Below are positions 16,440 through 55,789 of a DNA stretch of 64,000 nt, piece by piece (the stretch's first letter is position 1; the number at the start of each line of letters is the position of its first letter). The stretch covers positions 11,822 through 75,821 of the forward strand of contig JAIBAJ010000002.1 of the NCBI GenBank assembly GCA_019695265.1. Direction: 5' to 3'. Position numbers and translations under genes: made by a program. The notes under the pieces were generated by a model. The model was not told where the DNA came from, did not search any database, and worked only from the letters and a program-made list of their open reading frames with translations. The stretch is from Bacteroidia bacterium (lineage in GTDB: Bacteria > Bacteroidota > Bacteroidia > JAIBAJ01).

Positions 16440-16617
16440 CCGACGCAAACGTATTAATTTTTCAAAAATTGCCATACGTATTGGATATTCAGTTTTGAAA
16501 GTAAAAAAGGGCATTTTAAGCCTTAAAAGATATCAGTTGAAGATTTTGATTTCAACTTTTTGAATTTAAAACCTTTGGTAACCGGTTCTAATTGTTCCTT
16601 GCAAGTTCGGTTGGGTT

Positions 16618-25888: not shown

Positions 25889-26992
25889 TTGTTAAACAAC
25901 GATTTATTATATAAGATCGCTATCACAATGATAGAAGGAGTAGGTCCTGTAACTGCAAGAAAATTAATTGCTTATTCAGGAGGTGTGGCTCCAATTTTCA
26001 GTTCAAAAAAATCCATCCTGGCAAAAATTCCCGGGATTAGAGACAATCATATTTCAGGGATTTTTAAAGATGATTTGCTTCCCAGGGCTGAAAAGGAGCT
26101 GAAGTTTATTGAGAAAAATGATATTCAAACCTACTATTTTTTGGATGAAAATTATCCACGCCGAATAAAAGAGTTGGACGATAGTCCGGTTCTATTGTTT
26201 GGTAAAGGAAATTTACAACTCAATTCAGATAGAGTTATTTCAATTGTTGGAACTAGGAATGCAACAGAATACGGCAAATTGATGACTTCAAAAATTGTTG
26301 AGGAACTTGCTCCATTCCAACCATTAATATTAAGTGGATTAGCTTATGGTATTGATATTGCAGCGCATAAAGCGGCATTGGATATTGGTTTGCAAACAGT
26401 TGGAGTTGTTGGGCATGGTTTAGATACACTTTATCCATCGTTGCATAAACCCATTGCGGAGAAAATGATGGAGAACGGAGGAGTTTTGAGCGCATATCCG
26501 AGTAAAACATCCATAGACCCCAATAATTTTCCGGATAGAAACAGAATTGTAGCAGCCATGACAGATGCGGTGCTTGTTATGGAGGCTGGTGCTTCCGGTG
26601 GGGCTTTAATTACTGCCAATTTTGCCTCAGAATTTAAACGGGATGTTATGGCATTTCCCGGAAGATCCATTGACCCATTTTCGGCGGGTTGTAATGATTT
26701 GATTAAAAAGGGGAAAGCAAAAATGGTGGAGTCTTCCAAAGAAATTGCTGATATTCTTGGCTGGAGATTAGACAATCAGAATACCAAACCTATTCAAAAG
26801 CAATTGTTTGTTGAATTAGATGAAGTTGAACAACAAATTTGGAACACCTTAAAGCTGGATGGTAAACTTAAAATGGATATCCTGTCCTTGAAAATTGGAA
26901 AAAGTTTAAGTCAAACATCTTCCACCTTATTTAATTTGGAACTAAAAGGGATTGTAAAATGTTATCCTGGAACTATTTATGGTTTGGTATAA
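25889..26992 (+). CDS. dprA: DNA processing protein DprA (Smf)
   Basis: Rossmann-like DprA core ISIVGTRNATEYG...ILSGLAYGIDIAAHKAAL. Confidence 0.85.
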   Translation: MLNNDLLYKIAITMIEGVGPVTARKLIAYSGGVAPIFSSKKSILAKIPGIRDNHISGIFKDDLLPRAEKELKFIEKNDIQTYYFLDENYPRRIKELDDSPVLLFGKGNLQLNSDRVISIVGTRNATEYGKLMTSKIVEELAPFQPLILSGLAYGIDIAAHKAALDIGLQTVGVVGHGLDTLYPSLHKPIAEKMMENGGVLSAYPSKTSIDPNNFPDRNRIVAAMTDAVLVMEAGASGGALITANFASEFKRDVMAFPGRSIDPFSAGCNDLIKKGKAKMVESSKEIADILGWRLDNQNTKPIQKQLFVELDEVEQQIWNTLKLDGKLKMDILSLKIGKSLSQTSSTLFNLELKGIVKCYPGTIYGLV

Positions 26993-27310
26993 TGGGAATT
27001 TGCGTGAAGCCGGGAAGCTTTTAATATACCAGATATAATGAATCATTTACTACAACTAATCGCTTGACTTTTACCTAATGTTCTTAGCATTATTTTCATT
27101 TGGTTTGATAATTAGATCTTGACTTTAGCCGGAACTGCAGCTTTAGTTTAAAGTTATTACCTGCCGCATTTCATACTTATTTTTAGTTCCTTGGTTTTCC
27201 CGGAGTTTAGAAAACCATGGCAGTTGGGTTGAAGTTTGGCGATGTTTCCCTTTGCAGAAGAGGATAGGTATAGTTACCATTTGGGTATGTTTTTACAAGG
27301 ATAGGTAGCG

Positions 27311-27458
27311 CATCGGGCAACGATAGAGGCAAGTAGCCCACAGGACACCGACGGCGCTAGCCTAGGGGGACGAGGACTACAGCCGATAGCGTGACCCGAA
27401 CGCCCATGCAAGTAGTTAAGGATTTGGTAAACAAATAGTTGGGCGGAGGGGGCCCGCC
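27311..27458 (+). repeat. E-family structured intergenic repeat, long variant (E5)
   Basis: atcgggcaacgatagaggcaagtagcccacaggac...gacgaggactacagccgatagcgtgacccgaacgcc...gggcggagggggcccgcc. Confidence 0.8.
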
Positions 27459-27516
27459 TAAAAGGTATTATTAGTTATAGTCGATTAAGGACGATTAACT
27501 TTTTAAGTAAACTTAA

Positions 27517-28398
27517 TTAGGTTTGACCGGAAGGAAGGTTTTTTTGTAATTTGGACGCTACTTGGGTACTTCCATCATGGCTCCATCCGGGTGGCATGAA
27601 CATATATTTTAGTTTGGATAAAAAGTTTGGCGCTTTTTCCATGTCTTTCCAAATGTCTCCATATTCATGAAAGGCAATTTTGATAAGGTTATAAGTATGT
27701 ATGTTTTTGGTGATGCCGAATTTAACCGGGTCGTCATCACGTTCTTCCTGAAAGGTTCCAAATAATCGATCCCATATAATAAGAATACCGGCATGGTTTT
27801 TATCCAAGTACCTAACATTGCTGGCATGGTGAACCCGGTGGTGAGAGGGGGTATTGAAAATCCATTCTAAAGGTCCCAATGTTTTAATAGTTTTGGTATG
27901 AATCCAATATTGATAAATTAAACTCAATTGCATCATAAACATGATCCAAATTGGATGGAAACCAAGCAAGGGCATCCAACACCACCAAACATATTTGTAA
28001 AGGATTTCAGTCCAACTTTGTCTTAAAGCAACTGCCAAATTATAATTTACAGAAGAATGATGATTTATATGAGCGGCCCAAAGAAGGCGTATTTCGTGAC
28101 TTAAGCGGTGGTGCCAATAGAAGGTAAAATCGTCTCCTAAGAATAAAAGTAAGCAACTCCACCAAACAAAAGGAATATCATAAAGCCTGTATTCGTAAAG
28201 CAAACTGTATAATAGGAAGGCAGCCCCTTTTACCCAATAGCCAATGAGCAAGGAACCTATACCCATTCCAATAGAGGCAAAACTATCTTTAGGATCATGT
28301 AATTTGAGTTTGTCCCTCCAATCAAAATACAATTCCAAAAGGATTAGGAAAATAAAACCTGGAATAAATAATACTGCTGGGTCTTTTAGTGGATCCAT
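27517..28398 (-). CDS. Fatty acid hydroxylase superfamily membrane enzyme (sterol-desaturase-like)
   Basis: Multiple transmembrane helices plus histidine boxes HHRLSHE, HINHH and HHRVHH. Confidence 0.8.
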   Translation of the reverse strand: MDPLKDPAVLFIPGFIFLILLELYFDWRDKLKLHDPKDSFASIGMGIGSLLIGYWVKGAAFLLYSLLYEYRLYDIPFVWWSCLLLFLGDDFTFYWHHRLSHEIRLLWAAHINHHSSVNYNLAVALRQSWTEILYKYVWWCWMPLLGFHPIWIMFMMQLSLIYQYWIHTKTIKTLGPLEWIFNTPSHHRVHHASNVRYLDKNHAGILIIWDRLFGTFQEERDDDPVKFGITKNIHTYNLIKIAFHEYGDIWKDMEKAPNFLSKLKYMFMPPGWSHDGSTQVASKLQKNLPSGQT

Positions 28399-28457
28399 GG
28401 TGGTTGACTTTGAATGGATAAAAGTAGCAAATACATGGAATTGAAAATTCGCAAAAA

Positions 28458-31400
28458 TCAGGTAAAATTAGGAAGTGGTTTTAATATCCAAATTTTATTG
28501 GAGGTTAGTTTGGTAGTATCTAATACATCTACCGAAAAACCATTTAGGAGAGCGAAGTTTAGGAGCCAATTTCCAGAAATAAAATGCAAACTGTTTTGGG
28601 TTTTGTTAAAGCCAAAAATGGTAGTCGAGAAAAACTCGGTTAGCCAGGTTCCCCTTTGTCTTTTCAATAAATCAGAATCACCGTCCCGGATGATAATCAA
28701 TCCATTAGGATTTAATTTGGAGAACATTTTCTGGAGTACAAGCTTTTGTTCATCGGGTGTTAGGTAGTGAAGTACATCAGCCATGATGAATACATCGGAA
28801 TTTTCCAAATCCTCCTTTACAATATCTGCAGATTTAAAGCTCACATTTTCACTGGTGGTAGAAATGTTAGAAGCAACTTCGATTTTACTTTCATCATAAT
28901 CCAATCCAATTAGTTTTCTTTCTGGTGAAAGGAATGAAAGCATCCAGGTTAAAAATCCGTAACCACAACCAATATCGGTAATTTTTCCGGAAAGAGGAAC
29001 TAATTTGTGAAAAGGAGTATAGTTGTCTTCCAGGCGTATTTTTATTCTTGCGTACCATTCCAACACAGGTCCTTTATAAATGTAATTCTTAATGAGTTTT
29101 TCTTTGTAAAACCTTGGAGTTTCTAATTCATAACACAGATTAGCGTAGTTATTTCTAAACCACTTTCCGATATTTTTAGCTAAATCGGCCGGTAATTCAC
29201 CAAAATCATCCATTCCAATATCGGTTTCTTTTTCCTTTTTTGCCTTAATCCTTGGCATTATCTTCAAGGTAATTTCTCCGTTTTTTAATAAAAAATCTCC
29301 TTTGCTCATGGTGTAACCGGTACCATGGGTAATGATTGGAATAATATCCAATTGAAGTTCTTTGGCTAGTAAAAATGCACCTTTATGGAAACGCTTCATT
29401 TTGCCGGTTGGGCTTCTAGTTCCTTCCGGCCATACAAGAATACTATATCCTTGATCTACAATTGCTTTTAATTTTTCAATGTTGTTTTCAATGCCATCAG
29501 CAACCGGCAGATAATCGGCGTATTTTATGAATGTGCCAAAAAACGGAGAATTCCAAACCCATTCATTAGTCAATAAGATCATTCTTGGTGATAACATTTG
29601 AATGGTAAGAATATCCAAAAAACTTTGATGGTTGCTTATTAGGATTGCCGGTTTTTCAAAGGTTTCGTTGGATTGATTGATAATTTTCTTCTTAACATTT
29701 GCCATTAGGTATACTAAACTACCTGTAAACCAAGAAAGACATTGGTGGAAAAAAAACTTAGACCTGGAAGAGGTTTGTCTTAACAATCTGAATTGTATAG
29801 CTCCAATGACATTTAGAATGGTACATCCTATTAGAAAGTAAAAGAATGCAATAAAGGATAAAATAAAAGAAATGGCAGTGTAAGGAAGATAGTTTTTGTC
29901 CTTTCTATCCAAGGCTAATATTCTAAATAGAAAAGGGGAAATAGTAAAAGAAATAATCAAAACGCCTACCATACCAATAATGGTAACTAAAGCTATACTT
30001 TTTAAGGCCGGATGTTTGGCAAAAATTAGAACACCAACGCCAATTAAAGTGGTAAGAGCCGATAAGAAGATGGACGACTTAAAGGAGGTTAGAACTTTTT
30101 TTCCTGTTTTGAATTCTTCCAGTTGACCACCTAAAACAAAAATACTGTAATCATCTCCTAAGCCAAAGAGCAGAGTACCAATAATAATGTTTACAATATT
30201 AAATTTAAGGCCAAAAATACCCATAATTCCTAAGAGCCAAATCCAACTTAAAACCATCGGCAAGAAATTAATTAGGGTAAGTTCTATTCGGCCATAACTT
30301 AATAGTAAAACAAAAAATACTAATCCTCCGGCAGTGAAGATAATGGTGTTGAAATCTGAACTAACGAGTTGGATGAATTGCTTGGTTAGGTGTTGCTTGT
30401 CTAAAACAATTCCTGAATTAGATTCAATAAGTTTTTCGGTTAGTGTTTCCCGATTTTCAGGTGAAGATTTTATTTGATTTATTAAATAGAAATTTCCGTT
30501 TTTTTCGAAAATAAAGTCATTAAAAAAGGCGGTCGTAACCCATTTGATATCCTTCTCGTCCATGGCCTTTGGCGGTGAAGCCAAGTTATTCAAAAACACC
30601 TCGAAAGAATTAGGTTTGAATCCCAGAATCCTAGCCTGTGATTCTAGGTTTTTTCGTACCAAAACCAATTTCTCCTTGTTCCAGTAATTTGTCCAACTTC
30701 TTCTTTTTTCAGTTTGTTTGCTCAAGGATGGTATCAAAGAACTTGGAGTAATTGCTTGTTGAATTAGTTTATTGAATGGAGCCTCTTCGATTTTTTTATT
30801 CAGTCTTTCATTTATTTCTAAAGCCTCTTGTAGAGTGGCACCTGAATTGGCAACAAATAGATTCTTGATGGAATTGGAGCTAATTGTTTCTAATTTTAAT
30901 TCGGCTAAATGAGTTTTTTCATCCAGGAAATTCATTTTCATTAAATCCTTTTCAAATCCAGCTTTATCAGAGAAAAAGAGTAAGAGAATGGTAAAACCCA
31001 GAACTGAAATCAAAATAAATTTGTTTTTTTCAAAAGGTATTTCCAGCCATGACGTTAATAGGTTGGAAGCATTGGAGGATTGTTTCTCTTTAACTAATAA
31101 GGGAAAGACCAATAAAGTAAAAATGGCGGAATGAATAAGTGCCAGTCCTGCGTACATTCCTAACTGTTGTAATGCTTGAGATTTAACCAGGGTTAATGCA
31201 AAAAAGGCTCCGGCAGTAGTTATACAACCTACCAACATTGGTCTTGCTATTTCACTCAAGGTATTTGGTATGGATTGCTCATGCTTTAAATGAGTCAAGA
31301 AATGCAAGGAATAATTAATTGCAATTCCTAAAACTATGCTACCGGCAGCTATGGCAATAACTGAAATTTCTCCAACAAAAATTCCTAGTAGGCTCAAAGA

Positions 31401-32300
31401 TGATATTGCTCCGAATAAAACAGGTGTAAAAAGTAACAAGGGAATTCGAATAGATCTGAAGTACCAAATCATTATTCCAAGAATTAAAACAATCGCTAAA
31501 ATGGATGTGAATAAGGTATCCCTTTTCATTTGGCGACTATTGGAAACTGCTACTACAGGACCTCCATAAATATAGGCAGGGAAAATTGAAAATTCTTTTT
31601 CAAGGAGATCGACTAATTCCCCATTTTTCTGAGTATTATTAGAAGGGTAATTGGGGGTTATGAAAAGTATCAGGTTATGGTGATCTTTAGTTAGAATTCT
31701 TCCATCCACTATTTCAAAATTACCATCAGGCTGAATATTCTTCAATAATTTCCAGGCAATAGTTTGCAAACCAACAGGATCCTGTCCTAGGTGTTGGGTT
31801 GAAAAAATGGAAAATGGATTTTGAATTTTTTCCTTAAGATCGGCTAAAAGCCTATGACTTCCGGTATCGGTAAGTAAAGGAGAGAAGGCAGAATAATTTG
31901 AGTCAGGAATTAGGAAAACCAAATTGCGATAAAAGAAATCGAGGTAGGCCTCTAATAAGGTATCCGGGGCTTTGTAATCTATTTTTCTGATAAGATTTTT
32001 AAAAGCATTGTGTTGAAGCTTTTCAAATACCGAATCTCCAACCTGAATTAAATGGTCTTCGCTAGTGCTATCCTCTATTAGAACAATTATTTTATCTGAA
32101 AATCCGCTTTCGGATAGCAACTTGGTTGCTTGTATGGTGGTAGAGTCTTGAGGGACGAAGGCTGAAATGTCTTCGTTTAGAGTTAATTCTCTAATATTAT
32201 AGAGTGAGATCAGGAAATAGATCAGACTAGTTCCTAAAACTAGTGCTTTGTTTTTTTTAACCCAGTTCCAAATGCTATTTACCATGATTAATCGCTGCAA
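28458..32300 (-). CDS. Tri-domain fusion: MMPL-type predicted exporter (aa 1-800) + PlsC-type lysophospholipid acyltransferase (aa 805-1050) + class I SAM-dependent methyltransferase (aa 1055-1280)
   Basis: A single uninterrupted 1280-aa ORF. It has two 6-TM bundles with large loops, as in a COG4258-like exporter. The acyltransferase motifs are NHQSFLD and PEGTRS. The methyltransferase motif I is ITDIGCGYGFLTWML, with LIGLDYDES following. It lies 60 nt upstream of the hydroxylase gene on the same strand. Confidence 0.7.
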   Translation of the reverse strand: MQRLIMVNSIWNWVKKNKALVLGTSLIYFLISLYNIRELTLNEDISAFVPQDSTTIQATKLLSESGFSDKIIVLIEDSTSEDHLIQVGDSVFEKLQHNAFKNLIRKIDYKAPDTLLEAYLDFFYRNLVFLIPDSNYSAFSPLLTDTGSHRLLADLKEKIQNPFSIFSTQHLGQDPVGLQTIAWKLLKNIQPDGNFEIVDGRILTKDHHNLILFITPNYPSNNTQKNGELVDLLEKEFSIFPAYIYGGPVVAVSNSRQMKRDTLFTSILAIVLILGIMIWYFRSIRIPLLLFTPVLFGAISSLSLLGIFVGEISVIAIAAGSIVLGIAINYSLHFLTHLKHEQSIPNTLSEIARPMLVGCITTAGAFFALTLVKSQALQQLGMYAGLALIHSAIFTLLVFPLLVKEKQSSNASNLLTSWLEIPFEKNKFILISVLGFTILLLFFSDKAGFEKDLMKMNFLDEKTHLAELKLETISSNSIKNLFVANSGATLQEALEINERLNKKIEEAPFNKLIQQAITPSSLIPSLSKQTEKRRSWTNYWNKEKLVLVRKNLESQARILGFKPNSFEVFLNNLASPPKAMDEKDIKWVTTAFFNDFIFEKNGNFYLINQIKSSPENRETLTEKLIESNSGIVLDKQHLTKQFIQLVSSDFNTIIFTAGGLVFFVLLLSYGRIELTLINFLPMVLSWIWLLGIMGIFGLKFNIVNIIIGTLLFGLGDDYSIFVLGGQLEEFKTGKKVLTSFKSSIFLSALTTLIGVGVLIFAKHPALKSIALVTIIGMVGVLIISFTISPFLFRILALDRKDKNYLPYTAISFILSFIAFFYFLIGCTILNVIGAIQFRLLRQTSSRSKFFFHQCLSWFTGSLVYLMANVKKKIINQSNETFEKPAILISNHQSFLDILTIQMLSPRMILLTNEWVWNSPFFGTFIKYADYLPVADGIENNIEKLKAIVDQGYSILVWPEGTRSPTGKMKRFHKGAFLLAKELQLDIIPIITHGTGYTMSKGDFLLKNGEITLKIMPRIKAKKEKETDIGMDDFGELPADLAKNIGKWFRNNYANLCYELETPRFYKEKLIKNYIYKGPVLEWYARIKIRLEDNYTPFHKLVPLSGKITDIGCGYGFLTWMLSFLSPERKLIGLDYDESKIEVASNISTTSENVSFKSADIVKEDLENSDVFIMADVLHYLTPDEQKLVLQKMFSKLNPNGLIIIRDGDSDLLKRQRGTWLTEFFSTTIFGFNKTQNSLHFISGNWLLNFALLNGFSVDVLDTTKLTSNKIWILKPLPNFT

Positions 32301-32371
32301 AGATATATTCGTTTGTTAAGGAATGGAGTGGAAATGAATTTAGTCTTGCTAATTCAATTACTGGATTAATT

Positions 32372-33427
32372 TTGCCAAACTTTGAAATATTAATGCCACA
32401 ATTCAATAGGGAAGATCAAATTTTACTTTTAAAGGCTGGTTTGGAGCAGGAGGATGAGAAATCGTATTCCCTATTCTGTAGTTGGGTTAACCATCAGGAT
32501 TTCGAAAAGGAATTTTCGCATACGGAGTATAGGCTTTTACCTTATTTATGGTTTAGGCATAAATCAAAATTTAAGGACCATCCCATTTCAGATAGGTTTC
32601 AGGGAGTTTATAAGAGAACGCTCTTCCATAACACCCGAATGATAAAAAATGGGGTTGAAGTCAGTAAGATACTTTCTGAAAATCAGGTTCAACATGGGTT
32701 TGTAAAAGGGTTGGTATTTGTACTTAAGGTATATCCTTCTTTAGGCACTCGTCCTATGAATGACATTGACCTTTTAATCAATGAACATGACCTTGAGAAA
32801 ACTAGTCGAATATTAATAAAGGCAGGGTTCATTCCAAAAAAGAAACTGGAACATGTTAAGTTACTGAGGAAAAATTCGATTGGTTTTATTTCAAAGGAAA
32901 ATGTAGGTATTGATATACATATTAGACCTGTGGCCTTTCCGGTAGAAAATTTTGATGCAGGGTATTTCTTGGATAAATTAGATTCTTGTCAAACCCAATT
33001 GGGACATATTCCCTTGGTTTCAATTGATAAAGCGGTAGAATTTACCATATTGAATGGTTTGCTTGAAACGGATGGACATTGGTTACTTGATTTGAAATTA
33101 TCGGATCCGGAATCCAAAATTTCAACAGGATTGATAAAGAGATTGGATGAATTGAAACAAATTGCAGCAATAATTAAATTCCGTTTAAACTTGTTTAGTG
33201 AAGGAAATAATTCCTTAGTGGCAAACTCTTTGATTCCGAAAGCTTATGTGCGTTTTTTGAAAAATAAATTGAAAGATAATCCGGCTAGTTTTAGATTAGC
33301 AAATCTATATTGGTATTTTGCCCTTAAAGATGGTTTTTACAAGAGTCCTTTGTACAATGGGATGTACTATTGGCTTTATTTAAGGTATTCCTTTTTGTGG
33401 CTATTATCCAATAAAAAGTTAAGTTAA
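32372..33427 (+). CDS. Uncharacterised nucleotidyltransferase-fold protein (PF14907-like)
   Basis: LGTRPMNDIDLLI is a Pol-beta-type G[ST]...DxD motif. It is divergently transcribed from the fusion gene. Confidence 0.4.
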   Translation: MPNFEILMPQFNREDQILLLKAGLEQEDEKSYSLFCSWVNHQDFEKEFSHTEYRLLPYLWFRHKSKFKDHPISDRFQGVYKRTLFHNTRMIKNGVEVSKILSENQVQHGFVKGLVFVLKVYPSLGTRPMNDIDLLINEHDLEKTSRILIKAGFIPKKKLEHVKLLRKNSIGFISKENVGIDIHIRPVAFPVENFDAGYFLDKLDSCQTQLGHIPLVSIDKAVEFTILNGLLETDGHWLLDLKLSDPESKISTGLIKRLDELKQIAAIIKFRLNLFSEGNNSLVANSLIPKAYVRFLKNKLKDNPASFRLANLYWYFALKDGFYKSPLYNGMYYWLYLRYSFLWLLSNKKLS

Positions 33428-33544
33428 ATGGTAATGACCTATAGCTATTTCTAGGGGGGGGAAGCCTGGTTAGAAATTCTTGAATATAATATATACTTTT
33501 TAATTGTAGTTTTGTCCAAATTCAAAAGATAAATAGATAGCATT

Positions 33545-34066
33545 ATGTCAGAAATTAAACGAGTTTTTTTGGTCGATGATGACCCGTTTCAATTGGAGAT
33601 GTTTAAGGACCATCTAAGTTCTAAAACAAAATTTGAATTTTTTACATTCCAAACCGGAGAGGACGCCTTGTCGAAGTTGTCGGAATTAAAACCGGAATTG
33701 GTATTTTTAGATTATGAATTAAACAGTGTTAATGCAAAGGCAAAAAATGGCTTAGAGGTTCTCAAGGCAATTAAAAAGGAATTACCAGGAACCGAAGTTG
33801 TTATGATCAGCGGTCAAGAAAAAATTGATGTAGCTGTGAATACTATGAGGTATGGTGCGTTTGACTATATTGTTAAAAGTGAAAGTGCATTTCACCGATC
33901 TGAGAATGCAATTTTCAATATTATTAAGAGTTTAAAATTGCAGCATGATGCTGCATTTTATAAAAAGTTATCGATAGGATTTGCTGTAGCCATGGGGTTA
34001 ATGGTTTTATTGGCTGTGGTTCTTAAATTAACCGGCAATTTAAATCCTAATCCATCTTGGTCATAA
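33545..34066 (+). CDS. Membrane-anchored single-domain response-regulator receiver protein
   Basis: REC fold (VFLVDDDPF...LVFLDYEL...VVMISG...K) followed by one C-terminal TM helix LSIGFAVAMGLMVLLAVVL. There is no output domain. Confidence 0.6.
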   Translation: MSEIKRVFLVDDDPFQLEMFKDHLSSKTKFEFFTFQTGEDALSKLSELKPELVFLDYELNSVNAKAKNGLEVLKAIKKELPGTEVVMISGQEKIDVAVNTMRYGAFDYIVKSESAFHRSENAIFNIIKSLKLQHDAAFYKKLSIGFAVAMGLMVLLAVVLKLTGNLNPNPSWS

Positions 34067-34075
34067 TTCCGAACT

Positions 34076-34405
34076 ATGGTTTCAGACAAAGAAAATGAAG
34101 AGGCCAAAGAATTGGAATCGGATGGAAGACCGCGTGTAAGAGCATCTGAAAATACGGCAAAAAGGTTTAAATTTCAAAACAAGGTTAAATACCGAAAGCC
34201 ATCCAATTTAAGGCGAAAACTAAAAAAGAGGTATCAAAAATACCGGGTTTTTGCCATGTTATCTGTTATTGCTGTGATTATTATTGTTTTCCTTTTTTCA
34301 GCAGTTAAGTTTGCTATTGAAAAGAGCGATGAAAACTTGGAACAACAAAAACAAAAACGAATTAGAAAGATTATTGAACAGGAGGAAAGAAACAAAAAGT
34401 TTTAG
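34076..34405 (+). CDS. Small basic single-pass membrane protein
   Basis: 109 aa with a Lys/Arg-rich N-terminus, a TM helix FAMLSVIAVIIIVFLFSAV and a charged C-terminus. It lies 10 nt downstream of the REC gene. Confidence 0.35.
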   Translation: MVSDKENEEAKELESDGRPRVRASENTAKRFKFQNKVKYRKPSNLRRKLKKRYQKYRVFAMLSVIAVIIIVFLFSAVKFAIEKSDENLEQQKQKRIRKIIEQEERNKKF

Positions 34406-35590: not shown

Positions 35591-36589
35591 ATGGCTTCCA
35601 ACTTTGTTGATTATGTGAAAATTTGTTGCCGCAGTGGCAAGGGTGGGGGAGGAAGTACGCATTTCTACCGCGATAAATTAACTGCAAAAGGCGGTCCTGA
35701 TGGTGGAGATGGAGGGCGTGGAGGTCACATTATTCTTAAAGGTAATGCCCAGTTATGGACTTTACTTCATTTGAAATATATGAAGCATGTTATAGCTGAA
35801 CCGGGAGAAAGTGGAAAGGGTATGCTCAAAACCGGAAAGGATGGTAAGGATATTATTCTTGAAGTTCCTCTTGGGACTGTAGCTAAAAATGCTGAAACGG
35901 ATGAAGTGTATTTCGAAATTACTGTTGATGGTGAAGAGCGAATTTTGACCCCGGGAGGAAGAGGTGGATTAGGAAATAATCATTTCAAAACAGCAACTCG
36001 TCAAACTCCTCGTTTTTCTCAACCCGGTGAACCCGGTCGGGAAGATTGGAATATCCTAGAACTAAAAGTATTGGCAGATGTAGGATTGGTTGGATTTCCA
36101 AACGCCGGAAAATCAACTCTTCTAAGTGTTGTAAGCGCGGCTAAACCGGAAATTGCCAATTACCCTTTTACTACCCTGGTACCTAACCTTGGTATTGTTA
36201 AATACAGGGATTACCGTTCATTTATTATGGCCGATATCCCTGGTATTATTGAAGGAGCTCACGAAGGAAAAGGTTTGGGAACAAGATTCTTGCGTCATAT
36301 CGAACGAAATTCCCTGCTCTTGTTTTTAGTGCCGGCCGATTCTCCAAGCATTAAGAAGGAATACAAAATTCTTGAAAAGGAATTGAAATTGTATAATCCT
36401 GAGTTACTTCATAAAACTCGGATTTTGGCTATTTCCAAATCCGATCTCTTGGATGAAGAACTTGAAAAATTATTGAAAAAGGACCTCCCCAGAGGCATTC
36501 AATATGTTTTTATTTCTTCTCATACCGGTCAGGGTATTCAGCAACTAAAAGATAAAATTTGGTCTGAATTAAATAAACCTCAAGACTAA
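35591..36589 (+). CDS. obg: GTPase Obg
   Basis: An Obg-fold glycine-rich N-terminus (GGDGGRGG) followed by a G domain with GFPNAGKST. Confidence 0.9.
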
Positions 36590-37422
36590 TTGCTTATTTC
36601 TAGTAATTCAATATCAAAAATTAATCTGGAATGCGGAGGTATTTCTGGTGGGCTACCTTTATCTCCATATCCCAAATGAGGAGGTACTATAATTCTGACT
36701 TTTTCTGTCTTATTCATTAACGGAAGAATCTCATCCCAAGCTTGAATAACCTCACCGGTTCCTACGGTAAAATGGTACGGAATTCCTGTATCATAACTTG
36801 AATCAAATTTGGTCCCATCCCATAAAAATCCTGCATAGTTTACCATGGCTTTTTGCTTTGGTAAAATAGGATTGCCATTACCTGCCTTTAAAACAATATA
36901 CCTTAATCCGGAATTTGTTCGAAGGGTATCACCCTGAATGGCTTGATAAGTGTAAGGTTTGTAAGGTTTTACTTCAACAAGTTCAAGTTCAAATACTAAA
37001 GTTGAATTAGGGGGAATTACTTCCAAGTCTTTGTTTCCATAGGCTAAGTTCGGAGGTATGGTAATAATAGCCTTATCTCCTTTATACATTTCAAGTAGGG
37101 CTTGTTCTAATCCTTTAATTATTAATCCGCTACCTATTTTAATTCCGATTGGTTGGTAACGTTCCCTACTATTGTCAAAAACCTTTCCTGTACTTAATTT
37201 GCCCAAATAATGGAAATATACCTCATCTCCTGAATGAACCTTGGGCCCATCACCTAGGGAGGTTAAGGTATATTTTACTCCTGATTTTAATTGATACTCC
37301 TTGTTGATTTCCCGTTTGGAACTCGTATTGGATTTAGCTTCGGTTAAAACTAAGTTTTGCTTGGTTTTACAGGAATTAAAACCAAGCAAAATGATAAAAA
37401 GTAAACCAAGGAGACGAACCAA
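36586..37422 (-). CDS. FKBP-type peptidyl-prolyl cis-trans isomerase with tandem FKBP domains
   Basis: Two FKBP cores ([18 protein letters not shown]...[10 protein letters not shown] and [16 protein letters not shown]...[10 protein letters not shown]). N-terminal signal peptide and lipobox (LGFNSC). Confidence 0.8.
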
Positions 37423-37429
37423 AGTACTT

Positions 37430-38296
37430 TTATTTTTTATTTATTTCCAATAATTCCACCTCAAATACTAAAGTAGCAAATGGAGGTAATTGTCCTCCGC
37501 CATCACCATATGCCAATTTAGAAGGGATAATTAATGTTGCCTTACTTCCTTTTTTCAATTTTGAAAATGCAAGTTCCCACCCTGGTATAACTTCTTGTCT
37601 GCCAAGTCTAAATCCAATTGGTTTTTTTCTTTTCAAACTGCTATCGAACACTTGTCCATCTAGAAATGTACCTTCATAATGTACTGTAATACTATCACCA
37701 TCTTGAGGAGTAGCACCTTTACCTTCTTTTGTTATAATGGTGTAAATTCCATTTTGGTCTGGCTTTTCCTTAATACCTTTTGAAGAAACATAACTGGCAA
37801 TTTTGCCTGCTTCCAGAGATGCCATTGCGGCCATTTCTTTTTGCATTTGTTTTTGATATTCTTCTTGGGTTTCAACTTTCACCATTTTAATATCAAATTT
37901 CAAAGCATCCCCTTCTTTAAAAAATTTAGGTTTAGGTGCTCTGCTCGAATGTTTATAAAATGAATCTGCGTTTACAATAAAGGTGGCGCTGTCTCCTTCA
38001 TTAAGCATGGCAAATCCTTCTTCAATGCTACCTGCATATTTGCTTTCCGGCATTGGGAATTTTTGCACGTTTTTGAATTTTCTGGAGTCAAATAGAACAG
38101 AATCTGTTGTAGAATTTTTTAATACAAGCTGAAGGGTAATGATATCTCCTACCGATGGTGCTTTGGCATCTTCATCGTGGTTGTGATACTGATAGAATAA
38201 ACCGGTTTCAGATTCATCAAATCCAGAATATTTTGAGTTTTTACATGAGGAAAAGGTTACTGCAGCTGCTATTCCTAAAAGGAAGATTTTTTTCAT
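37430..38296 (-). CDS. FKBP-type peptidyl-prolyl isomerase lipoprotein
   Basis: Lipobox VTFSSC, and a C-terminal FKBP core ITVHYEGTFLDGQVFDSS...LVFEVELLEI. Confidence 0.75.
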   Translation of the reverse strand: MKKIFLLGIAAAVTFSSCKNSKYSGFDESETGLFYQYHNHDEDAKAPSVGDIITLQLVLKNSTTDSVLFDSRKFKNVQKFPMPESKYAGSIEEGFAMLNEGDSATFIVNADSFYKHSSRAPKPKFFKEGDALKFDIKMVKVETQEEYQKQMQKEMAAMASLEAGKIASYVSSKGIKEKPDQNGIYTIITKEGKGATPQDGDSITVHYEGTFLDGQVFDSSLKRKKPIGFRLGRQEVIPGWELAFSKLKKGSKATLIIPSKLAYGDGGGQLPPFATLVFEVELLEINKK

Positions 38297-38306
38297 TATT
38301 GTTTTA

Positions 38307-38819
38307 CTATTTTAAATCAACTAATTCAATGTCATAAACTAGGGCGACCTTCATTGGTATTTTATTGCCATCTCCAGGCAGCCCCCATCCGAGGTGCGAA
38401 GGTAGTATAAACCTAGCCTTGGAATTTTTTTTCATAAATAAAATTCCTTCCTCTAATCCTCTTTCAACTCCTCCATGGGCAATTTCAAAAGTTTTTACCC
38501 CATCCTTATTCGAATCGTAGCAAAGGGTTCCATCTAAAAGATAAAGTTTGTACCTGATAGATGCCTTCTGTCCGGGCTGGGCTAAATTTCCTTTCCCTTC
38601 CTGATAAATTTCATACCTTAAACCTGTCCCGGTTTGGGTCATCTTCCATGCTCTTCTTTGAATGTATTGATCAATTTGGAGGGCTTCGTTCTTGGTTACA
38701 ACCCTGTTGGCCTTAACTAATGGGTCTTTATAATCTTCAGGCCGGCCCGGTGGTACATAGTCATCCGACCCGCAACCGGCAAACATAAAAATTACAAGAA
38801 TTATAGCTAAATGCCTCAT
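38307..38819 (-). CDS. FKBP-type peptidyl-prolyl isomerase lipoprotein (size and architecture resemble gliding-motility GldI)
   Basis: Lipobox FAGCGS, and an FKBP core IRYKLYLLDGTLCYDS...LVYDIELVDL. Confidence 0.7.
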   Translation of the reverse strand: MRHLAIILVIFMFAGCGSDDYVPPGRPEDYKDPLVKANRVVTKNEALQIDQYIQRRAWKMTQTGTGLRYEIYQEGKGNLAQPGQKASIRYKLYLLDGTLCYDSNKDGVKTFEIAHGGVERGLEEGILFMKKNSKARFILPSHLGWGLPGDGNKIPMKVALVYDIELVDLK

Positions 38820-40127: not shown

Positions 40128-43100
40128 TTATTTTGTCAGTTTTTTCTCTGTATCCGGATAAACATACAGTTTTCCGGTATATATATGACGCATGTCGTTG
40201 TTATCCAATATGTTAACCTTGTAAACATAAATATCCTGCTTGATCATCTTCCCTTCACTCGAATTCTTAAAATCCCTTACTGACCCATCCCATGTTTCTT
40301 CAGGATTTTTTGACCTGAATATTTCTTCTCCCCACCTGTTGAAAATCTGTAATTCGTAGGTCTTTATTGCCATTCCTTTCCCTCCCCAAATTTCATTTTT
40401 CAAATCATGATTAGGTGTAAATGCATTCGGAATATACCAGGCAAAGTCCGGAACCACATGAACATACCTTGAAATTGTATCTAAGCATCCAAATTCAGTT
40501 ACTGCGGTTAGAAACAAATGATACATTCCTGTATCGTTATAAATATGTTCAATTAAATCGTTCAAATTGTCAGTATTCCCATCTCCATAATCGATAGTAC
40601 ATGAATTCCAGCCTAAACTCTCATTTACAATTATTACAGAAGGATTCAAAATTCCAACCGTTTCTTTGTCTGTTGAAAAATCTGCAGTAGGCAATGGATG
40701 AACCGTAACCGCATCTGCCGCAACCAATGTATCTATGCAACCATCAATGCTTTTAACAATTAAGGTAATATCATACAAGCCTGTTGGGAAATCTTCGGGT
40801 CCTGGTGCTAAATCGTCCGATGTATTTCCATTGCTAAAATCCCAGAAATAATCGATGATTTGATGAGGAGGATTGATTGGTGAAGATCCGCTAGAGAATC
40901 GAACGGTGTGTACATCACATCCTTCATCATCATCCATCACAAAATCAGCCTGTGGTATCGGATTCACTTCCACCGGAGTATTTGCCATTCCAATACAGCC
41001 CTGATCCGAAATTACCGTTAATGTTGTGGCATAGGTACCTGCGGCAGGATATAAATGGCTGGTAGAATCCCCACTAAATGTAGTATTATCTCCAAAATCA
41101 AATAAATATGAATTAATGCTGCCATAACTAATGGTGGAGGTTGATTCAAAAATCATAGGTACTTTGTCGCAAACATCTGGTGATGTAAAACTGGCAATAG
41201 GTAGAGGATAAATTTTCACCTCTTGTATCATAGTGTCTTTGCACTGTGAAAAATTCTCAACAATCAATCGAACCATAAATCCTGTATCAGGTTTTGATCC
41301 TATATAAGCATGAACTGGATTATACACAGGGTCTTGGACCGTCGCAATGGGTGGCTCTCCAAAATCCCACTCCCTTAGGGTAATTACATCGTTGGGATTG
41401 GTTGAATTATCTATAAATGTAATGGGTGTTCCTTGACATAAATCCAATGAAGAAACCGTAAAACTAGCGGTTGGCTTTTCAGATACAACTACATCTTTGG
41501 TAACCGTAGATGTACAAAGGCCGGCAACAACATCCAATGTAACAGTAAAGGTTCCTGGACCTAAGTAATTATGAACCGGATCATGAGCTACCGAAAAGGT
41601 TCCATCTCCGAACGACCAGGTTTGGGTGGTTCCAATTGCTGGAATAGTGGTATTGGTGAATATGGCATTATCCTGAGGATCACAAATTGGAACCGGAGTA
41701 GTAAAATTTGCTACCGGTAAGGGTTGAACATAGATTGATTCGGAATAAGATGCACTACATTGATTTCCGTCTACAATAGTTAAAACTGCTGTGCAATTGG
41801 TATTACTCGAAAATGTATGAGAAGCATTAGCTGTTGTATATAGGCCTCCTGGAGGATTGATTTGCCATCTAAAGGTCATGGCAGGATCAGTAGGTGTTGT
41901 ATTATAAAAATTTGTTGGTGTTCCAATACATGAAGTGTCGTAAATAAATGATGGTATCGGGTTGGGATAAATGGTCAACGGCTGTGTTACACTACCGGGG
42001 CAGCTTTCAATAGTAACTACCGATAAGGTAACATTGTAAGTACCGCTGGCTAAATAAGGATGTGAGGTAATTTGTCCGGTCCCAAATGGATTTGTTCCAT
42101 CCCCAAAATCCCAGGTATAGTTTGCAATGGTGGATGGTGTTGGCACAGTGGAGGTGCTTTGAAAACTGATGAGTGAGTTTGGGCATTGTCCAATACCTCC
42201 TGTAGTAGAAGTCGTGAAACTTACGGTTGGATTGGCATAAACAGTCGCTGTTCCGGTCCTGGTAACCGAACATCCGGATGGAGTTGTTGCCGTTACTGAA
42301 TAGTTTTGTTGACCTGCCGAAGCATAGGTATGCGATAAATCAGATCCGTTTTGAACAGGTGAACCATCACCAAAATCATAACTAACACTGTAGGTGTCTG
42401 TACATCCTCCGGTGAAAAATACTGTTTCATCAAATACAACAGGAGCTCCTTCGCATGGAGATGATTGGGTTACCGTTAAATCGGGTAATCCGGTTACATC
42501 TAAAATCCTACTCGTACTTGCCATACATCCACCATCCGTATTTACGGTTAAGGTAACTGTAATTTGACCGCAGTTGGTTACATTAATTACAGGATTCTGT
42601 AACCCTGAATGAATCGTTAAGCTTCCAAAATCCCAGTCATACGACTGAATACTACCTAAACTAACTGTGCTATTGTCTACAAAAGCTGCTGCCGAATTTT
42701 CGCAAATTCCTCCTGGAGTAGTAAAGTCAGCAACAGGTACCGGACTTACCTGAAATTCTGTACCCGATATGGTCGTGGCTATTCCGGGTGTTTGTAAGGA
42801 TACATTGGTTCCTGTCTGTCCATTGGTCATATTGGGTTGTCCTCCGGTTCCGGCATTGCCAAATCCAACGTCAATTCCTAATCCCGGACCATTGCTTACG
42901 GTATAAAATCGTTTAACACGTCCCCCACTGCCTCCTCCTCCTCCTTCCACATTCACAGAACTTGCACCATTACCACCTTTGCAGGTTATTGTCCCTGTTC
43001 CATTAATGTAAATACCTTGCAATAATACACCTCCTCCCGATCCTCCTCCTTCACTTTCTTTTTGGGGATCATTGCAGCCGGTCGCATTTTGCCCATTCAT

Positions 43101-43991
43101 CGAAATGTTCCCATTCACATTGATAACCAATCCTGTTGCGGTAAAAGCACCACCTCCCGCTGCCGATGCCGGACATTCAGAACCTCCTCCTCCTGATCCC
43201 ATATCGATATCATTGGCATTCGCCGTTCCATATGGTTGTCCTGCATTCGATGGAGTCGAAATCCCTCCTCGTCCACCAAAATTACCATATCCTCCGCCTC
43301 CGCCTCCAATCGTAGAAAACCCATCACCTCCTAATCCCAATCCGGCTGGTGGTCCGGGCGGACCGCTCGCTGGTCCATAACCTTTCCCATTCCCATCAAT
43401 ATTACCTAAAATATTGATTTTTTTTCCATTAAAAACCAATGGTTGCTGAGGATTTAAACTAACTGTAACCCCGGCATTCACCGTAATTCGATCATAGTTT
43501 TGAACACCACTTAAAGTCTGATTCGATGAAATAGTTAAACTGGTCGAAAAAAATGCATTGCAATTTGTCCCGGAAGGAGCAGCCGCATTGTCATAATACA
43601 TATAAATGTCTAAAGTCGCACCTGAAGCTATGGATGGTAAACTTATCCAAATCTCTGTCTGTGTCGTGTTTATTCCACTTTCAATACAAAATGGTAAAGG
43701 ATTTCCACAGGGAGAATCTAAAAATCGAAGATCATTTCCGTTAGCCTGTAATTTTCCCGCAGCAATCAAAGCTTGGGTGTTTATATAAAAAATATGTGGC
43801 GCACCTGCAACGGATGCATTCCCGTTTTCATTCTTAAATTGAATTAATTGGTAATGCTTCCAAGGGGTATAATCACAACAAGTTGCCGGATTGTTAATTT
43901 GTGAATAGGCAATTGGTCTGTATGCCCATAAACAGATTAACAGAAGGGAAATATATCTAAGGTTTTTCTGCACTTTTTCGGTAATGTGCAA
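40128..43991 (-). CDS. Large secreted protein with a glycine-rich beta-helix-like region, multiple PKD domains and a T9SS type-B C-terminal domain
   Basis: 1287 aa with a signal peptide. A Gly-rich stretch (GGGGGYGNFGGRGG...GGGGGSGG) lies at about 42840-43400. PKD repeats include WDFGDGT and YDFGDGS. The C-terminal domain reads AWYIPNAFTPN...ELQIFNRWGEEIF...WDG...DIYVYKV. Confidence 0.75.
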   Translation of the reverse strand: MHITEKVQKNLRYISLLLICLWAYRPIAYSQINNPATCCDYTPWKHYQLIQFKNENGNASVAGAPHIFYINTQALIAAGKLQANGNDLRFLDSPCGNPLPFCIESGINTTQTEIWISLPSIASGATLDIYMYYDNAAAPSGTNCNAFFSTSLTISSNQTLSGVQNYDRITVNAGVTVSLNPQQPLVFNGKKINILGNIDGNGKGYGPASGPPGPPAGLGLGGDGFSTIGGGGGGYGNFGGRGGISTPSNAGQPYGTANANDIDMGSGGGGSECPASAAGGGAFTATGLVINVNGNISMNGQNATGCNDPQKESEGGGSGGGVLLQGIYINGTGTITCKGGNGASSVNVEGGGGGSGGRVKRFYTVSNGPGLGIDVGFGNAGTGGQPNMTNGQTGTNVSLQTPGIATTISGTEFQVSPVPVADFTTPGGICENSAAAFVDNSTVSLGSIQSYDWDFGSLTIHSGLQNPVINVTNCGQITVTLTVNTDGGCMASTSRILDVTGLPDLTVTQSSPCEGAPVVFDETVFFTGGCTDTYSVSYDFGDGSPVQNGSDLSHTYASAGQQNYSVTATTPSGCSVTRTGTATVYANPTVSFTTSTTGGIGQCPNSLISFQSTSTVPTPSTIANYTWDFGDGTNPFGTGQITSHPYLASGTYNVTLSVVTIESCPGSVTQPLTIYPNPIPSFIYDTSCIGTPTNFYNTTPTDPAMTFRWQINPPGGLYTTANASHTFSSNTNCTAVLTIVDGNQCSASYSESIYVQPLPVANFTTPVPICDPQDNAIFTNTTIPAIGTTQTWSFGDGTFSVAHDPVHNYLGPGTFTVTLDVVAGLCTSTVTKDVVVSEKPTASFTVSSLDLCQGTPITFIDNSTNPNDVITLREWDFGEPPIATVQDPVYNPVHAYIGSKPDTGFMVRLIVENFSQCKDTMIQEVKIYPLPIASFTSPDVCDKVPMIFESTSTISYGSINSYLFDFGDNTTFSGDSTSHLYPAAGTYATTLTVISDQGCIGMANTPVEVNPIPQADFVMDDDEGCDVHTVRFSSGSSPINPPHQIIDYFWDFSNGNTSDDLAPGPEDFPTGLYDITLIVKSIDGCIDTLVAADAVTVHPLPTADFSTDKETVGILNPSVIIVNESLGWNSCTIDYGDGNTDNLNDLIEHIYNDTGMYHLFLTAVTEFGCLDTISRYVHVVPDFAWYIPNAFTPNHDLKNEIWGGKGMAIKTYELQIFNRWGEEIFRSKNPEETWDGSVRDFKNSSEGKMIKQDIYVYKVNILDNNDMRHIYTGKLYVYPDTEKKLTK

Positions 43992-48536: not shown

Positions 48537-48621
48537 TAACTGGACTTTGTTATTGTATCGGTGTAAATGTTTACTATTTTTTTAATAACTGGTTTAATTA
48601 AGCTAAATCGGACAGGAATGG

Positions 48622-48972: not shown

Positions 48973-48983
48973 AGTTTATAAAA

Positions 48984-55673: not shown

Positions 55674-55789
55674 ATGAAATATCTTTATTTAAGCATTTGG
55701 GCTATCTTGTTTTTGGGTATAAATTTAGGCTATTCTCAATCAAAAAAAAACAAATTCATCAAAAGATTTGGAGTTAATATGGGGTGAAA
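55674..55789 (+). other. Short signal-peptide ORF (MKYLYLSIWAILFLGINLGYSQSKKNK...). It is out of frame with the downstream 509-aa ORF because of an A9 homopolymer at 55742-55750.
   Basis: Removing one A from the A9 run fuses the signal peptide in frame to ...TNSSKDLELIWGENF, the body of the downstream protein. Confidence 0.6.

Follow-up and report, generated by a model that had tools for sequence, protein, structure and literature searches.

The window analyzed in this study, a 64,000-nucleotide stretch of DNA from a member of the Bacteroidia, carries a flxU-like gene on its minus strand (positions 28458..32285) that encodes 1275 amino acids followed by a stop codon. The mechanically defined open reading frame (ORF) on this strand spans positions 28458-32300 and comprises 1280 amino acids when counted from a TTG codon at 32300. 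An ATG codon at 32285 is the probable start, because it fits the 1275-amino-acid length of NCBI protein P0001, which is 100% identical and is named ‘MMPL family transporter’. Downstream on the same strand lies a gene for a 293-amino-acid FA_hydroxylase protein (27517-28398, ‘sterol desaturase family’), and a divergent NTP_transf_5 gene (PF14907, E 5e-19) occupies positions 32372-33427 of the plus strand, with a probable ATG at 32393. All three genes lie where an earlier note on this DNA had placed them, and Pfam searches support the MMPL, Acyltransferase, Methyltransf, FA_hydroxylase and NTP_transf_5 domains alike. The three-domain architecture that the note had described for the long ORF was also borne out by Pfam and by a check of motifs, as were its motifs and domain boundaries.

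Residues 1-794 (29904..32285, minus strand) form an HAE3/MMPL-type RND exporter with 12 transmembrane (TM) helices and two periplasmic loops. Pfam recognizes MMPL in two stretches of the protein (E 1.8e-17), and hydropathy analysis yields a 1+5 / 1+5 TM pattern with loops of ~200 amino acids each, plus an extra hydrophobic hairpin at residues 799-835, after the second TM bundle. Among NCBIfam models the domain is closest to HAE3/HpnN-type RND transporters, although its scores for these best matches (HAE3, 117 bits; HpnN, 96 bits) are far lower than the family cutoffs of 352 and 752 bits. Its PDB matches by sequence are likewise HpnN (6WU0/5KHN). The motif GLGDDYSIF in TM10 is conserved, and TM4 carries GIAINYSLHF. 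E. coli ApeM aligns collinearly with the exporter domain over 592 amino acids (22% identity, E 3e-14, BLASTP); this homology and the 12-TM, two-loop topology place the domain among APPE/ApeM-type RND exporters. HpnN/MmpL-type lipid exporters of the HAE3 and MMPL RND families share the 12-TM organization with two periplasmic domains, but these families lack the C-terminal acyltransferase and methyltransferase domains that are present in the fusion protein.

A two-helix membrane anchor and a PlsC-type (LPLAT) acyltransferase follow at residues ~795-1031 (29193..29903, minus strand). The Pfam match to Acyltransferase (PF01553) covers residues 878-990 (E 2.8e-18, 66 bits versus a cutoff of 23). 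Both the HX4D motif (NHQSFLD) and block III (PEGTRS) are intact; the catalytic H, D, PEG and R are invariant in an alignment of 17 homologues, and the motifs are kept with minor substitutions in 81 of 81 sequences. PlsC of Thermotoga maritima (5KYM) matches residues 812-1015 by sequence (E 3.8e-13). Its fold matches as well, with a TM-score on the target of 0.78, and it shares with the fusion the HX4D and PEGTR motifs and an N-terminal two-helix membrane-surface anchor. The presence of both the catalytic blocks and the PlsC fold makes this domain a member of the LPLAT/PlsC family (PF01553). However, identity to 5KYM is just 21%, and the domain of the fusion is tethered to a transporter. E. coli ApeD is 28% identical to the acyltransferase core (E 2e-12, BLASTP).

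The remaining residues, ~1032-1275 (28461..29192, minus strand), comprise a helical cap, which carries a conserved KGPVLEWY sequence, and a class I SAM methyltransferase Rossmann domain. Methyltransf_31/25/12/11 models match at residues 1106-1210 (E 9e-15), with Methyltransf_31 scoring 55 bits versus a cutoff of 27. Motif I (DIGCGYG) and the acidic loop (GLDYDE) are both conserved, and the catalytic residues of motif I are likewise invariant in the alignment of 17 homologues; motif I, an acidic residue after beta-2 and a Rossmann fold together identify a class I SAM methyltransferase. For the C-terminal 481 amino acids, which span the acyltransferase and methyltransferase, AlphaFold yields a model with a pLDDT of 90 and a pTM of 0.86, and the latter value suggests that the two domains are held in a fixed mutual arrangement. 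Foldseek matches to this model include the small-molecule methyltransferases 3DTN (E 1e-12 for the methyltransferase domain), Rv2258c, CysG and SgvM.

We considered whether the methyltransferase domain could be the counterpart of ApeB and FlxJ, family-2 O-methyltransferases that also contain a dimerisation domain, and rejected this assignment. ApeB matches the fusion with an E value of 0.008 at best (BLASTP), Pfam finds no Dimerisation domain in the fusion, and Methyltransf_2 is only a secondary match (29.9 bits, cutoff 22.3) relative to Methyltransf_31. In 16 of 80 loci, a family-2 O-methyltransferase of the ApeB/FlxJ type has its own gene adjoining the fusion. Judged by sequence comparison, the methyltransferase domain of the fusion is without a counterpart in the aryl-polyene (APE) pathway.

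The earlier note had raised the concern that adjacent genes might have been joined by a sequencing or assembly error. A survey of genome loci refutes this: the 80 loci span different species and independently made assemblies, among them complete chromosomes and cultured strains. All 80 encode one uninterrupted ORF, which is 1275-1315 amino acids long in 79 of them and N-terminally shorter in the remaining one, and so the fusion cannot be an assembly artefact. When database representatives of the acyltransferase and methyltransferase region were ranked, 113 of the best 150 proved to be at least 1200 amino acids long, with the match located at residues ~800-1280. The domain junctions are free of gaps in the homologue alignment. 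The sole ‘split’ example seen, at locus L095, probably results from sequencing frameshifts, as the adjacent GT2/DUF2062 gene on its contig is also truncated.

It is extremely improbable that three genes have been joined in error, or that the gene is decaying and non-functional, left over from a pigment cluster since lost. The one observation in favor of a relic is the absence of linked pigment genes described below, and an artefact has none. Every catalytic motif is intact even though the clade that contains the window's gene has diverged to 61% identity, and neither frameshifts nor lost motifs were seen in close relatives. The HX4D, PEGTR, FHKGAF, methyltransferase motif I and TM10 GDDY sequences are kept in every clade, those without linked pigment genes among them.

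A tri-domain protein of this kind, FlxU (Cpin_1873), is already present in Table S4 of Schoener et al. 2014 (PMC3992019). We consider it probable that the fusion is a member of this FlxU family, whose proteins are found in flexirubin-type aryl-polyene clusters of Bacteroidota. FlxU of Chitinophaga pinensis and Fjoh_1078 of Flavobacterium johnsoniae each carry these three domains, arranged identically, on one polypeptide of ~1280 amino acids. The fusion shows the same order of RND exporter, PlsC-type acyltransferase and class I methyltransferase, and is 38-43% identical to fusions at 78 loci, collinear over its residues ~4-1269; homologous single-ORF proteins occur in Chitinophaga, Mucilaginibacter, Niabella, Terrimonas and Sporocytophaga. 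When compared through congeneric orthologues rather than Cpin_1873 itself, it is 39-41% identical to the equivalents in Chitinophaga (eight named species or strains with flxT/flxV-type neighbors at the locus) and has all catalytic motifs in common with them. Our search of the literature found no biochemical or domain-level genetic characterization of any FlxU protein, and the function of FlxU is itself a prediction.

The genes that flank these fusions link the family to pigment synthesis. A GT2/DUF2062 gene (flxT-like) adjoins the fusion in 67 of the 80 loci and an amino-oxidase/retinol-reductase-like gene (flxV-like) in 68; other flanking markers are C45 acyltransferase-like (56 loci), ACPS (41), AMP-ligase (37), KS (34), LolA (27) and TAL (16) genes. 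Complete gene tables were examined for three in-cluster examples. At loci L003 and L005, the order is GT2/DUF2062, fusion, amino oxidase, C45 acyltransferase, ACPS and AMP-ligase, which corresponds to C. pinensis flxT-flxU-flxV, with a C45 acyltransferase gene next and the 4-coumarate-CoA ligase gene flxY at the cluster end. The earlier note had assumed that these three functions are usually encoded by separate genes in flexirubin clusters, which is wrong for Bacteroidota, where they are fused in all 80 loci. It is only proteobacterial APE clusters, as in E. coli CFT073, that regularly keep them as individual genes. ApeM and ApeD of E. coli CFT073 and Xenorhabdus doucetiae are homologous to the exporter and acyltransferase parts of one polypeptide here but are products of separate genes, and the APE methyltransferase ApeB belongs to a different family from that of the fusion. 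The relation that the note had drawn to aryl-polyene/flexirubin export and attachment functions is correct.

The architecture is therefore not new; what is new here is a FlxU family member that is unlinked from pigment genes. Most of the other fusion genes surveyed (67 or 68 of 80 loci) have flxT- and flxV-type neighbors, whereas the copy in the window does not, and flxT, flxV, flxW, KS and ACP genes are absent from the entire 64 kb. As the earlier note had observed for the immediate surroundings, no KS, ACP, ammonia-lyase (TAL) or other flexirubin/APE gene was found in the window. In a tblastn search with 46 cluster proteins, the hydroxylase gave the one significant match, accompanied by two chance-level matches (E 0.003-0.004), and a Pfam search of most of the larger remaining ORFs revealed no flexirubin/APE genes. 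Unlike in APE clusters, no LolA-like or DUF3261 (ApeL/ApeN-type, LolA-/LolB-like) partner gene adjoins the fusion, and LolA has no match in the 64-kb window. Pigment genes are likewise absent from the 10 kb around the fusion in its two closest genome relatives, and so a pigment role in this organism is no more than putative.

In a tree, the unlinked genes fall into three clades that lie apart from one another, each of them monophyletic and internally deep: one with the window, L006 and L007, a second with L048, L068 and L081, and a third with L038, L052, L067, L074, L054 and L061. None of their genes has pigment genes within 10 kb, and the depth and monophyly of the clades imply that the unlinked state is old and stable. 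The window's gene is ~40% identical to in-cluster proteins and its clade is separate and sits on a long branch, such that a change of substrate is possible. One reading is that the proteins of these clades acylate, methylate and export another envelope lipid on their own, with no aryl-polyene pigment involved. The three deep clades are consistent with this, as are the retention of every catalytic motif and the neighbors, which are unrelated housekeeping genes, none of them common between clades. However, cluster fragmentation is frequent in the family, with many loci having only GT2, FlxV and FlxW genes near the fusion and KS/ACP more than 10 kb away, and unlinked pigment genes need not be absent from the genome. 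Furthermore, the motifs of the unlinked proteins fall within the range of in-cluster variation, which favors the same chemistry. On balance, we view this reading as rather unlikely.

The product of the adjacent hydroxylase gene belongs to the PF04116 fatty acid hydroxylase superfamily (E 1e-26, 94 bits versus a cutoff of 31), with all three His boxes present (HHRLSHE, HINHH and HHRVHH). The gene begins 59 nucleotides past the flxU-like stop codon on the same strand, and this gap holds no terminator-like site. The earlier note had speculated about a self-contained unit of the fusion and the hydroxylase for tailoring and exporting a membrane lipid or pigment. Extended perhaps to the nucleotidyltransferase, such an operon would hydroxylate, acylate, methylate and export a membrane aminolipid or pigment in the fashion of ornithine-lipid tailoring. 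Besides the close spacing, which recurs in a 79% identical relative, this proposal can draw on a paralogous FA_hydroxylase (36% identity) at the edge of the L003 flexirubin cluster. However, adjacency is restricted to relatives that are at least 70% identical and in which the whole surrounding region is syntenic, and in L006 a ~580 bp insertion rich in inverted repeats separates the pair. A 61% identical relative does encode an orthologous hydroxylase (78% identity), but its gene neighbors DCC1-like and TilS genes on a contig of that MAG other than the one with the fusion. NTP_transf_5 adjoins the fusion only in the sub-clade that is at least 69% identical, and the other 78 loci have neither gene.

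The hydroxylase family is also ubiquitous in Bacteroidota, with more than 8000 clusters of homologues at E≤1e-20. Its members occur in varied housekeeping contexts, some of them beside YceD/L32 or ClpX genes. It is far more conserved than the fusion, as the best 120 homologues listed are 59-78% identical compared to ~40% for the fusion. The proposed resemblance to ornithine-lipid enzymes fails as well, with the OlsE model scoring 55.7 bits versus an NCBIfam equivalog cutoff of 475 and the OlsA models 19.1 and 15.4 bits versus 300. A self-contained operon is quite improbable given these observations. The hydroxylase is probably a neighbor, with a dedicated partner role being unlikely, and the adjacency of FA_hydroxylase and NTP_transf_5 looks like local synteny rather than a functional unit.

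As a probable FlxU family member, the fusion can be assigned a putative function modeled on the APE pathway, in which ApeD acylates lysophosphatidylglycerol and ApeM, with ApeL/ApeN, exports the product to the outer membrane (10.1101/2020.12.19.423268, PMC8253772). We propose by analogy that the fusion would serve in lyso-lipid acylation and outer-membrane export. The acyltransferase, methyltransferase and exporter parts would all face or sit at the cytoplasmic leaflet, with the two-helix anchor right after TM12 holding the PlsC-type domain at the membrane surface. This domain would acylate a lyso-lipid or a hydroxyl acceptor, and in the pigment pathway the transferred chain would be a polyenoyl or companion fatty acyl group bound to ACP or CoA. 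The class I methyltransferase would methylate the product or its precursor. Driven by proton-motive force, the HAE3/MMPL-type RND domain would then pull the finished lipid from the inner membrane and pass it to a LolA-like carrier in the periplasm, which would bring it to the outer membrane. Pigment partners of the fusion, if any exist, would be located elsewhere in the genome.

A broader and, in our estimation, unlikely scenario is that the three old unlinked clades represent Bacteroidota that have lost aryl-polyene pigments and retained the tri-domain machine. If true, the protein would act in these bacteria as a stand-alone system for the synthesis, methylation and export of a different outer-membrane lipid, and in the sub-clade of the window the downstream di-iron hydroxylase might have been recruited as a tailoring enzyme.

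The large ORF at window positions 28458-32300 (minus strand) is translated without an internal stop codon, and its product is 100% identical to P0001, a 1275-aa GenBank protein from a 'Bacteroidia bacterium' MAG that is named 'MMPL family transporter'. Given the length of this database entry, the true start is probably the ATG at 32285. Downstream lies an FA_hydroxylase gene (27517-28398, minus strand) that encodes three His boxes, and an NTP_transf_5 gene recognized by Pfam (32372-33427, plus strand) is oriented divergently from the fusion. All three ORFs reside where an earlier note, made from sequence alone, had placed them, and its description of them proved correct by ORF inspection, Pfam searches and motif examination.

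Along the fusion, Pfam searches match MMPL in two stretches and Acyltransferase (PF01553) at residues 878-990 (E 2.8e-18). Residues 1106-1210 match a number of class I methyltransferase models (best E 9e-15). Among NCBIfam models, the exporter portion is nearest to HAE3 and HpnN RND transporters, with scores well under their cutoffs. Sequence matches in the PDB include the acyltransferase PlsC (5KYM) for residues 812-1015 (E 3.8e-13), as well as HpnN and assorted methyltransferases. The hydropathy profile yields a topology of TM1, a 220-aa loop, TM2-6, TM7, a 198-aa loop and TM8-12, followed by an additional hydrophobic hairpin (residues 799-835) and 440 soluble residues. The C-terminal 481 residues were modeled by AlphaFold2 with high confidence (pLDDT 90.1, pTM 0.86). 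The first half of this model superposes on PlsC, whose N-terminal two-helix membrane anchor is part of the match (TM-score 0.78 on the target), and Foldseek aligns the second half with class I methyltransferases that act on small molecules. The methyltransferases matched in this way are all generic small-molecule enzymes (C-, O- and N-methyltransferases, 15-21% identity) and do not point to a substrate.

The earlier note had considered that the fusion might be an artefact of sequencing or assembly. A protein search recovered about 70 clusters of ~1280-aa proteins that share these three Pfam domains, and a scan of one genome per species gave at least 572 matching stretches. The best 80 loci, which were used for our surveys, derive from Chitinophaga, Mucilaginibacter, Niabella, Terrimonas, Sporocytophaga and many MAGs. 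A single uninterrupted ORF of 1275-1315 aa is present in 79 of these, and the remaining one is N-terminally shorter. Only P0074 resembles a split version: this database protein, encoded within a flexirubin cluster on a 171-kb contig (L095:8820-13842), is a 953-aa exporter/acyltransferase ORF accompanied by a separate 266-aa methyltransferase ORF. The neighboring GT2 gene is also truncated, lacking its DUF2062 part, and thus frameshift errors are probably responsible for both. When the acyltransferase-methyltransferase part alone was searched against 1.84 billion representatives, 535 clusters were found at E<=1e-30. Among the best 150 representatives, 113 are at least 1200 aa long and match at about residues 800-1280, and the shorter ones mostly match at their own C-terminal ends, as expected of truncated fragments. 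The domain junctions of the fusion and its homologues align gap-free. Furthermore, the H and D of HX4D, PEG-R, and the D-G-G of methyltransferase motif I are invariant among 17 aligned homologues, and the catalytic motifs are retained with only minor substitutions in every clade of an 81-sequence set. An assembly artefact is therefore excluded by the single-ORF loci, the gap-free junctions and the invariant motifs, and the tri-domain fusion is the rule in Bacteroidota.

The identity of this family is evident from its genomic associations. In three distant homologues (about 39% identity), gene tables show the fusion embedded centrally in canonical flexirubin/aryl-polyene clusters that also encode KS, ACP, ApeI-like and ApeP-like dehydratases, LolA, GT2+DUF2062, tyrosine ammonia-lyase (TAL), a halogenase, an amino-oxidase-type reductase, a C45 acyltransferase-like protein, ACPS and an AMP-ligase. 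A tblastn survey of the 80 loci for such markers revealed GT2/DUF2062 beside the fusion in 67 and the amino-oxidase gene in 68, followed by the C45 protein (56), ACPS (41), AMP-ligase (37), KS (34), LolA (27) and TAL (16). Two related loci, L003 and L005, carry the order GT2/DUF2062, fusion, amino oxidase, C45 acyltransferase, ACPS, AMP-ligase, which is that of the Chitinophaga pinensis flexirubin cluster from flxT-flxU-flxV onward to flxY, with the ligase at the cluster end. FlxU (Cpin_1873) is listed in Table S4 of Schoener et al. (2014; PMC3992019) with Fjoh_1078 of Flavobacterium johnsoniae as a homologue of 37% identity, and therefore the tri-domain fusion was already documented in 2014, with a predicted part in export and attachment during flexirubin biosynthesis (PMC3992019). 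The fusion is thus not the new protein type that the earlier note had proposed. Literature searches on flxU, Fjoh_1078 and Cpin_1873 returned the 2014 paper alone, with no biochemical or later functional study. The window protein belongs to an already known type, as a divergent FlxU family member that is unlinked to pigment genes.

The hydroxylase gene, together with the acyltransferase and methyltransferase domains, had also suggested, in the earlier note, a self-contained tailoring unit of the kind that modifies ornithine lipids. The NTP_transf_5 gene is divergent from the fusion in four genomes of a sub-clade with at least 69% identity (the window and the related loci L096, L097 and L006), and the hydroxylase gene follows the fusion in three of them; the L097 contig stops short of that position. 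Since the window and L006 are syntenic throughout the region bounded by a TonB receptor and Obg, these adjacencies represent ordinary synteny between close relatives. The flxU-like and hydroxylase genes of L006 are separated by an insertion of about 580 bp that is missing from the window (L006:13840-14420; OZ260106.1). This insertion is relatively GC-rich and carries nested inverted repeats (56-nt arms 80% and 24-nt arms 92% complementary), and it looks like a MITE or a structured mobile element. In a 61% relative (MAG GCA_947475205.1), the fusion is encoded on contig 3, flanked by DUF6563 and histidine kinase genes, and a 78%-identical hydroxylase is encoded on contig 32 adjoining DCC1-like and TilS genes.

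The hydroxylase was absent from all 78 loci surveyed outside the sub-clade of the window. One other pairing was noted, in L003, where a 36%-identical paralogue lies at the cluster edge; this single case does not make the pairing recurrent. At E<=1e-20, homologues of the hydroxylase fall into more than 8000 clusters, and the best 120, which include proteins from Flavobacteriales and Chitinophagales MAGs, are 59-78% identical and are annotated 'sterol desaturase family protein'. Other homologues adjoin YceD/L32 or ClpX. By these comparisons, the hydroxylase is much better conserved than the fusion and independent of it. With NCBIfam equivalog models, the hydroxylase scores 55.7 bits for OlsE (cutoff 475), and the acyltransferase scores at most 19 bits for OlsA (cutoff 300). 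These scores, far under the cutoffs, and the unconserved adjacency of the hydroxylase argue against an ornithine-lipid-like unit. Co-transcription of the fusion and hydroxylase genes is plausible because the 59-nt gap between them (28399-28457) carries no terminator-like site, and this short gap is weak evidence for a common pathway. A partnership between the two proteins is not supported. A promoter and terminator scan gave nothing above shuffled expectation, and window positions 26900-33700 contain no Rfam match.

Beyond the NTP_transf_5 gene, positions 33545-34405 (plus strand) encode a stand-alone receiver-domain protein (173 aa) and then a 109-aa ORF with a weak match (21 bits) to the N-terminus of PorY-family sensor kinases, a pair that is kept in the syntenic L006. 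The GC content of positions 28001-34000, which span the flxU-like, NTP_transf_5 and response-regulator region, is 0.34-0.35 versus mostly 0.36-0.45 elsewhere, a dip that could derive from membrane-protein composition or from an older acquisition.

The earlier note was right that pigment KS, ACP and ammonia-lyase genes are missing nearby, and no other flexirubin/APE gene was found by tblastn across the 64-kb window or by Pfam searches of most of the larger remaining ORFs. With 46 cluster proteins as queries, tblastn gave no significant match besides the hydroxylase, and two further matches were at chance level (E 0.003-0.004). The larger ORFs searched with Pfam correspond to housekeeping genes and type IX secretion cargo. 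Two large predicted cargo proteins of 921 and 1287 aa (7746-10511 and 40128-43991, both minus strand) share PKD repeats and a CHU_C sorting domain, with a SprB repeat in one and a DUF2341 domain in the other, and a third such protein is a Por_Secre_tail Kelch protein (15258-16514). At 46768-49811 (minus strand), genes for a LytTR response regulator, a sensor with a His_kinase domain (PF06580) and a membrane protein resembling LiaF probably constitute an envelope-stress two-component module. Three plus-strand ORFs of 478, 244 and 509 aa (5066-6502, 44609-45343 and 55768-57297) have no Pfam match at E<=1e-5.

Loci with no marker within 10 kb form three separate monophyletic clades in a neighbor-joining tree of 81 proteins; one more such locus, on a 4-kb contig, is uninformative. 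On a long branch, the window clusters with L006 (70% identity; from the complete chromosome OZ260106.1) and a third locus, L007 (61%). All catalytic motifs are kept in the unlinked clades, and therefore these genes are under selection. All-against-all clustering revealed no neighbors common to the orphan clades except an FKBP-type gene cluster near two of the three. Pfam assigns only housekeeping functions to ten neighbors of three orphan loci, where histidine kinase, lipoamide dehydrogenase, ferrochelatase, NamZ, ABC-2, M42 peptidase, GH3 and Pth genes occur. In the window, three tandem paralogous genes (278, 288 and 170 aa; 36586-38819, minus strand) have counterparts in the syntenic relative that are annotated as FKBP_C peptidyl-prolyl isomerases. 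That three clades carry an FlxU-type fusion apart from pigment genes is one of three usable points of this survey, beside the prevalence of the fusion in Bacteroidota and the retention of its catalytic motifs; the window locus itself adds little beyond the family survey and reveals no new system. The unlinked genes probably serve a flexirubin pathway that is dispersed over the genome, and it is less likely that they have been repurposed as a stand-alone lipid machine, which would be the novel case.

Comparison with the ape cluster of E. coli CFT073 indicates that the exporter domain of the fusion aligns collinearly over 592 aa with ApeM (22% identity, E 3e-14) and that its acyltransferase core shares homology with ApeD (28% identity, E 2e-12), whereas its methyltransferase domain has practically no relationship to ApeB (E 0.008). 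ApeB-like family-2 O-methyltransferases, which carry a dimerization domain, are encoded by a separate gene adjoining the fusion in 16 of the 80 loci. The FlxU methyltransferase domain is thus an additional activity that lacks a counterpart in the better-studied proteobacterial APE pathway.

In MmpL3-type transporters, Asp-Tyr pairs in TM4 and TM10 relay protons. Among 81 sequences, almost all FlxU family members keep GLGDDYSIF in TM10, and most have N-Y in TM4. In the APE pathway, ApeD acylates lysophosphatidylglycerol, ApeJ next adds GalNAc and the polyene, and ApeM, together with the LolA/LolB-like ApeL and ApeN, delivers the lipid to the outer membrane (10.1101/2020.12.19.423268; PMC8253772). 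These published roles serve as the basis for the mechanism that we propose for the fusion. The 12-TM RND protein is predicted to end in the cytoplasm, and hairpin 799-835, which aligns with the monotopic two-helix anchor of PlsC, would hold the acyltransferase site at the cytoplasmic leaflet beside the transporter. The methyltransferase is SAM-dependent and so would need to be cytoplasmic. Given this arrangement and the TM10 and TM4 motifs, inner-leaflet synthesis (acyl transfer and methylation) may be coupled to proton-driven extraction by the same polypeptide, and the lipid would then be handed to a LolA-like carrier, where one exists. The analysis shows the domain identities and motifs, the topology from hydropathy, the predicted fold and the genomic association among relatives, and from these we infer the substrates, the order of steps and the inter-domain coupling, as well as any pigment role in the organism represented by the window. 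Lipid acylation, methylation and inner-membrane extraction in one chain would provide a neat model for the making of specialized lipids and their routing to the Gram-negative outer membrane.
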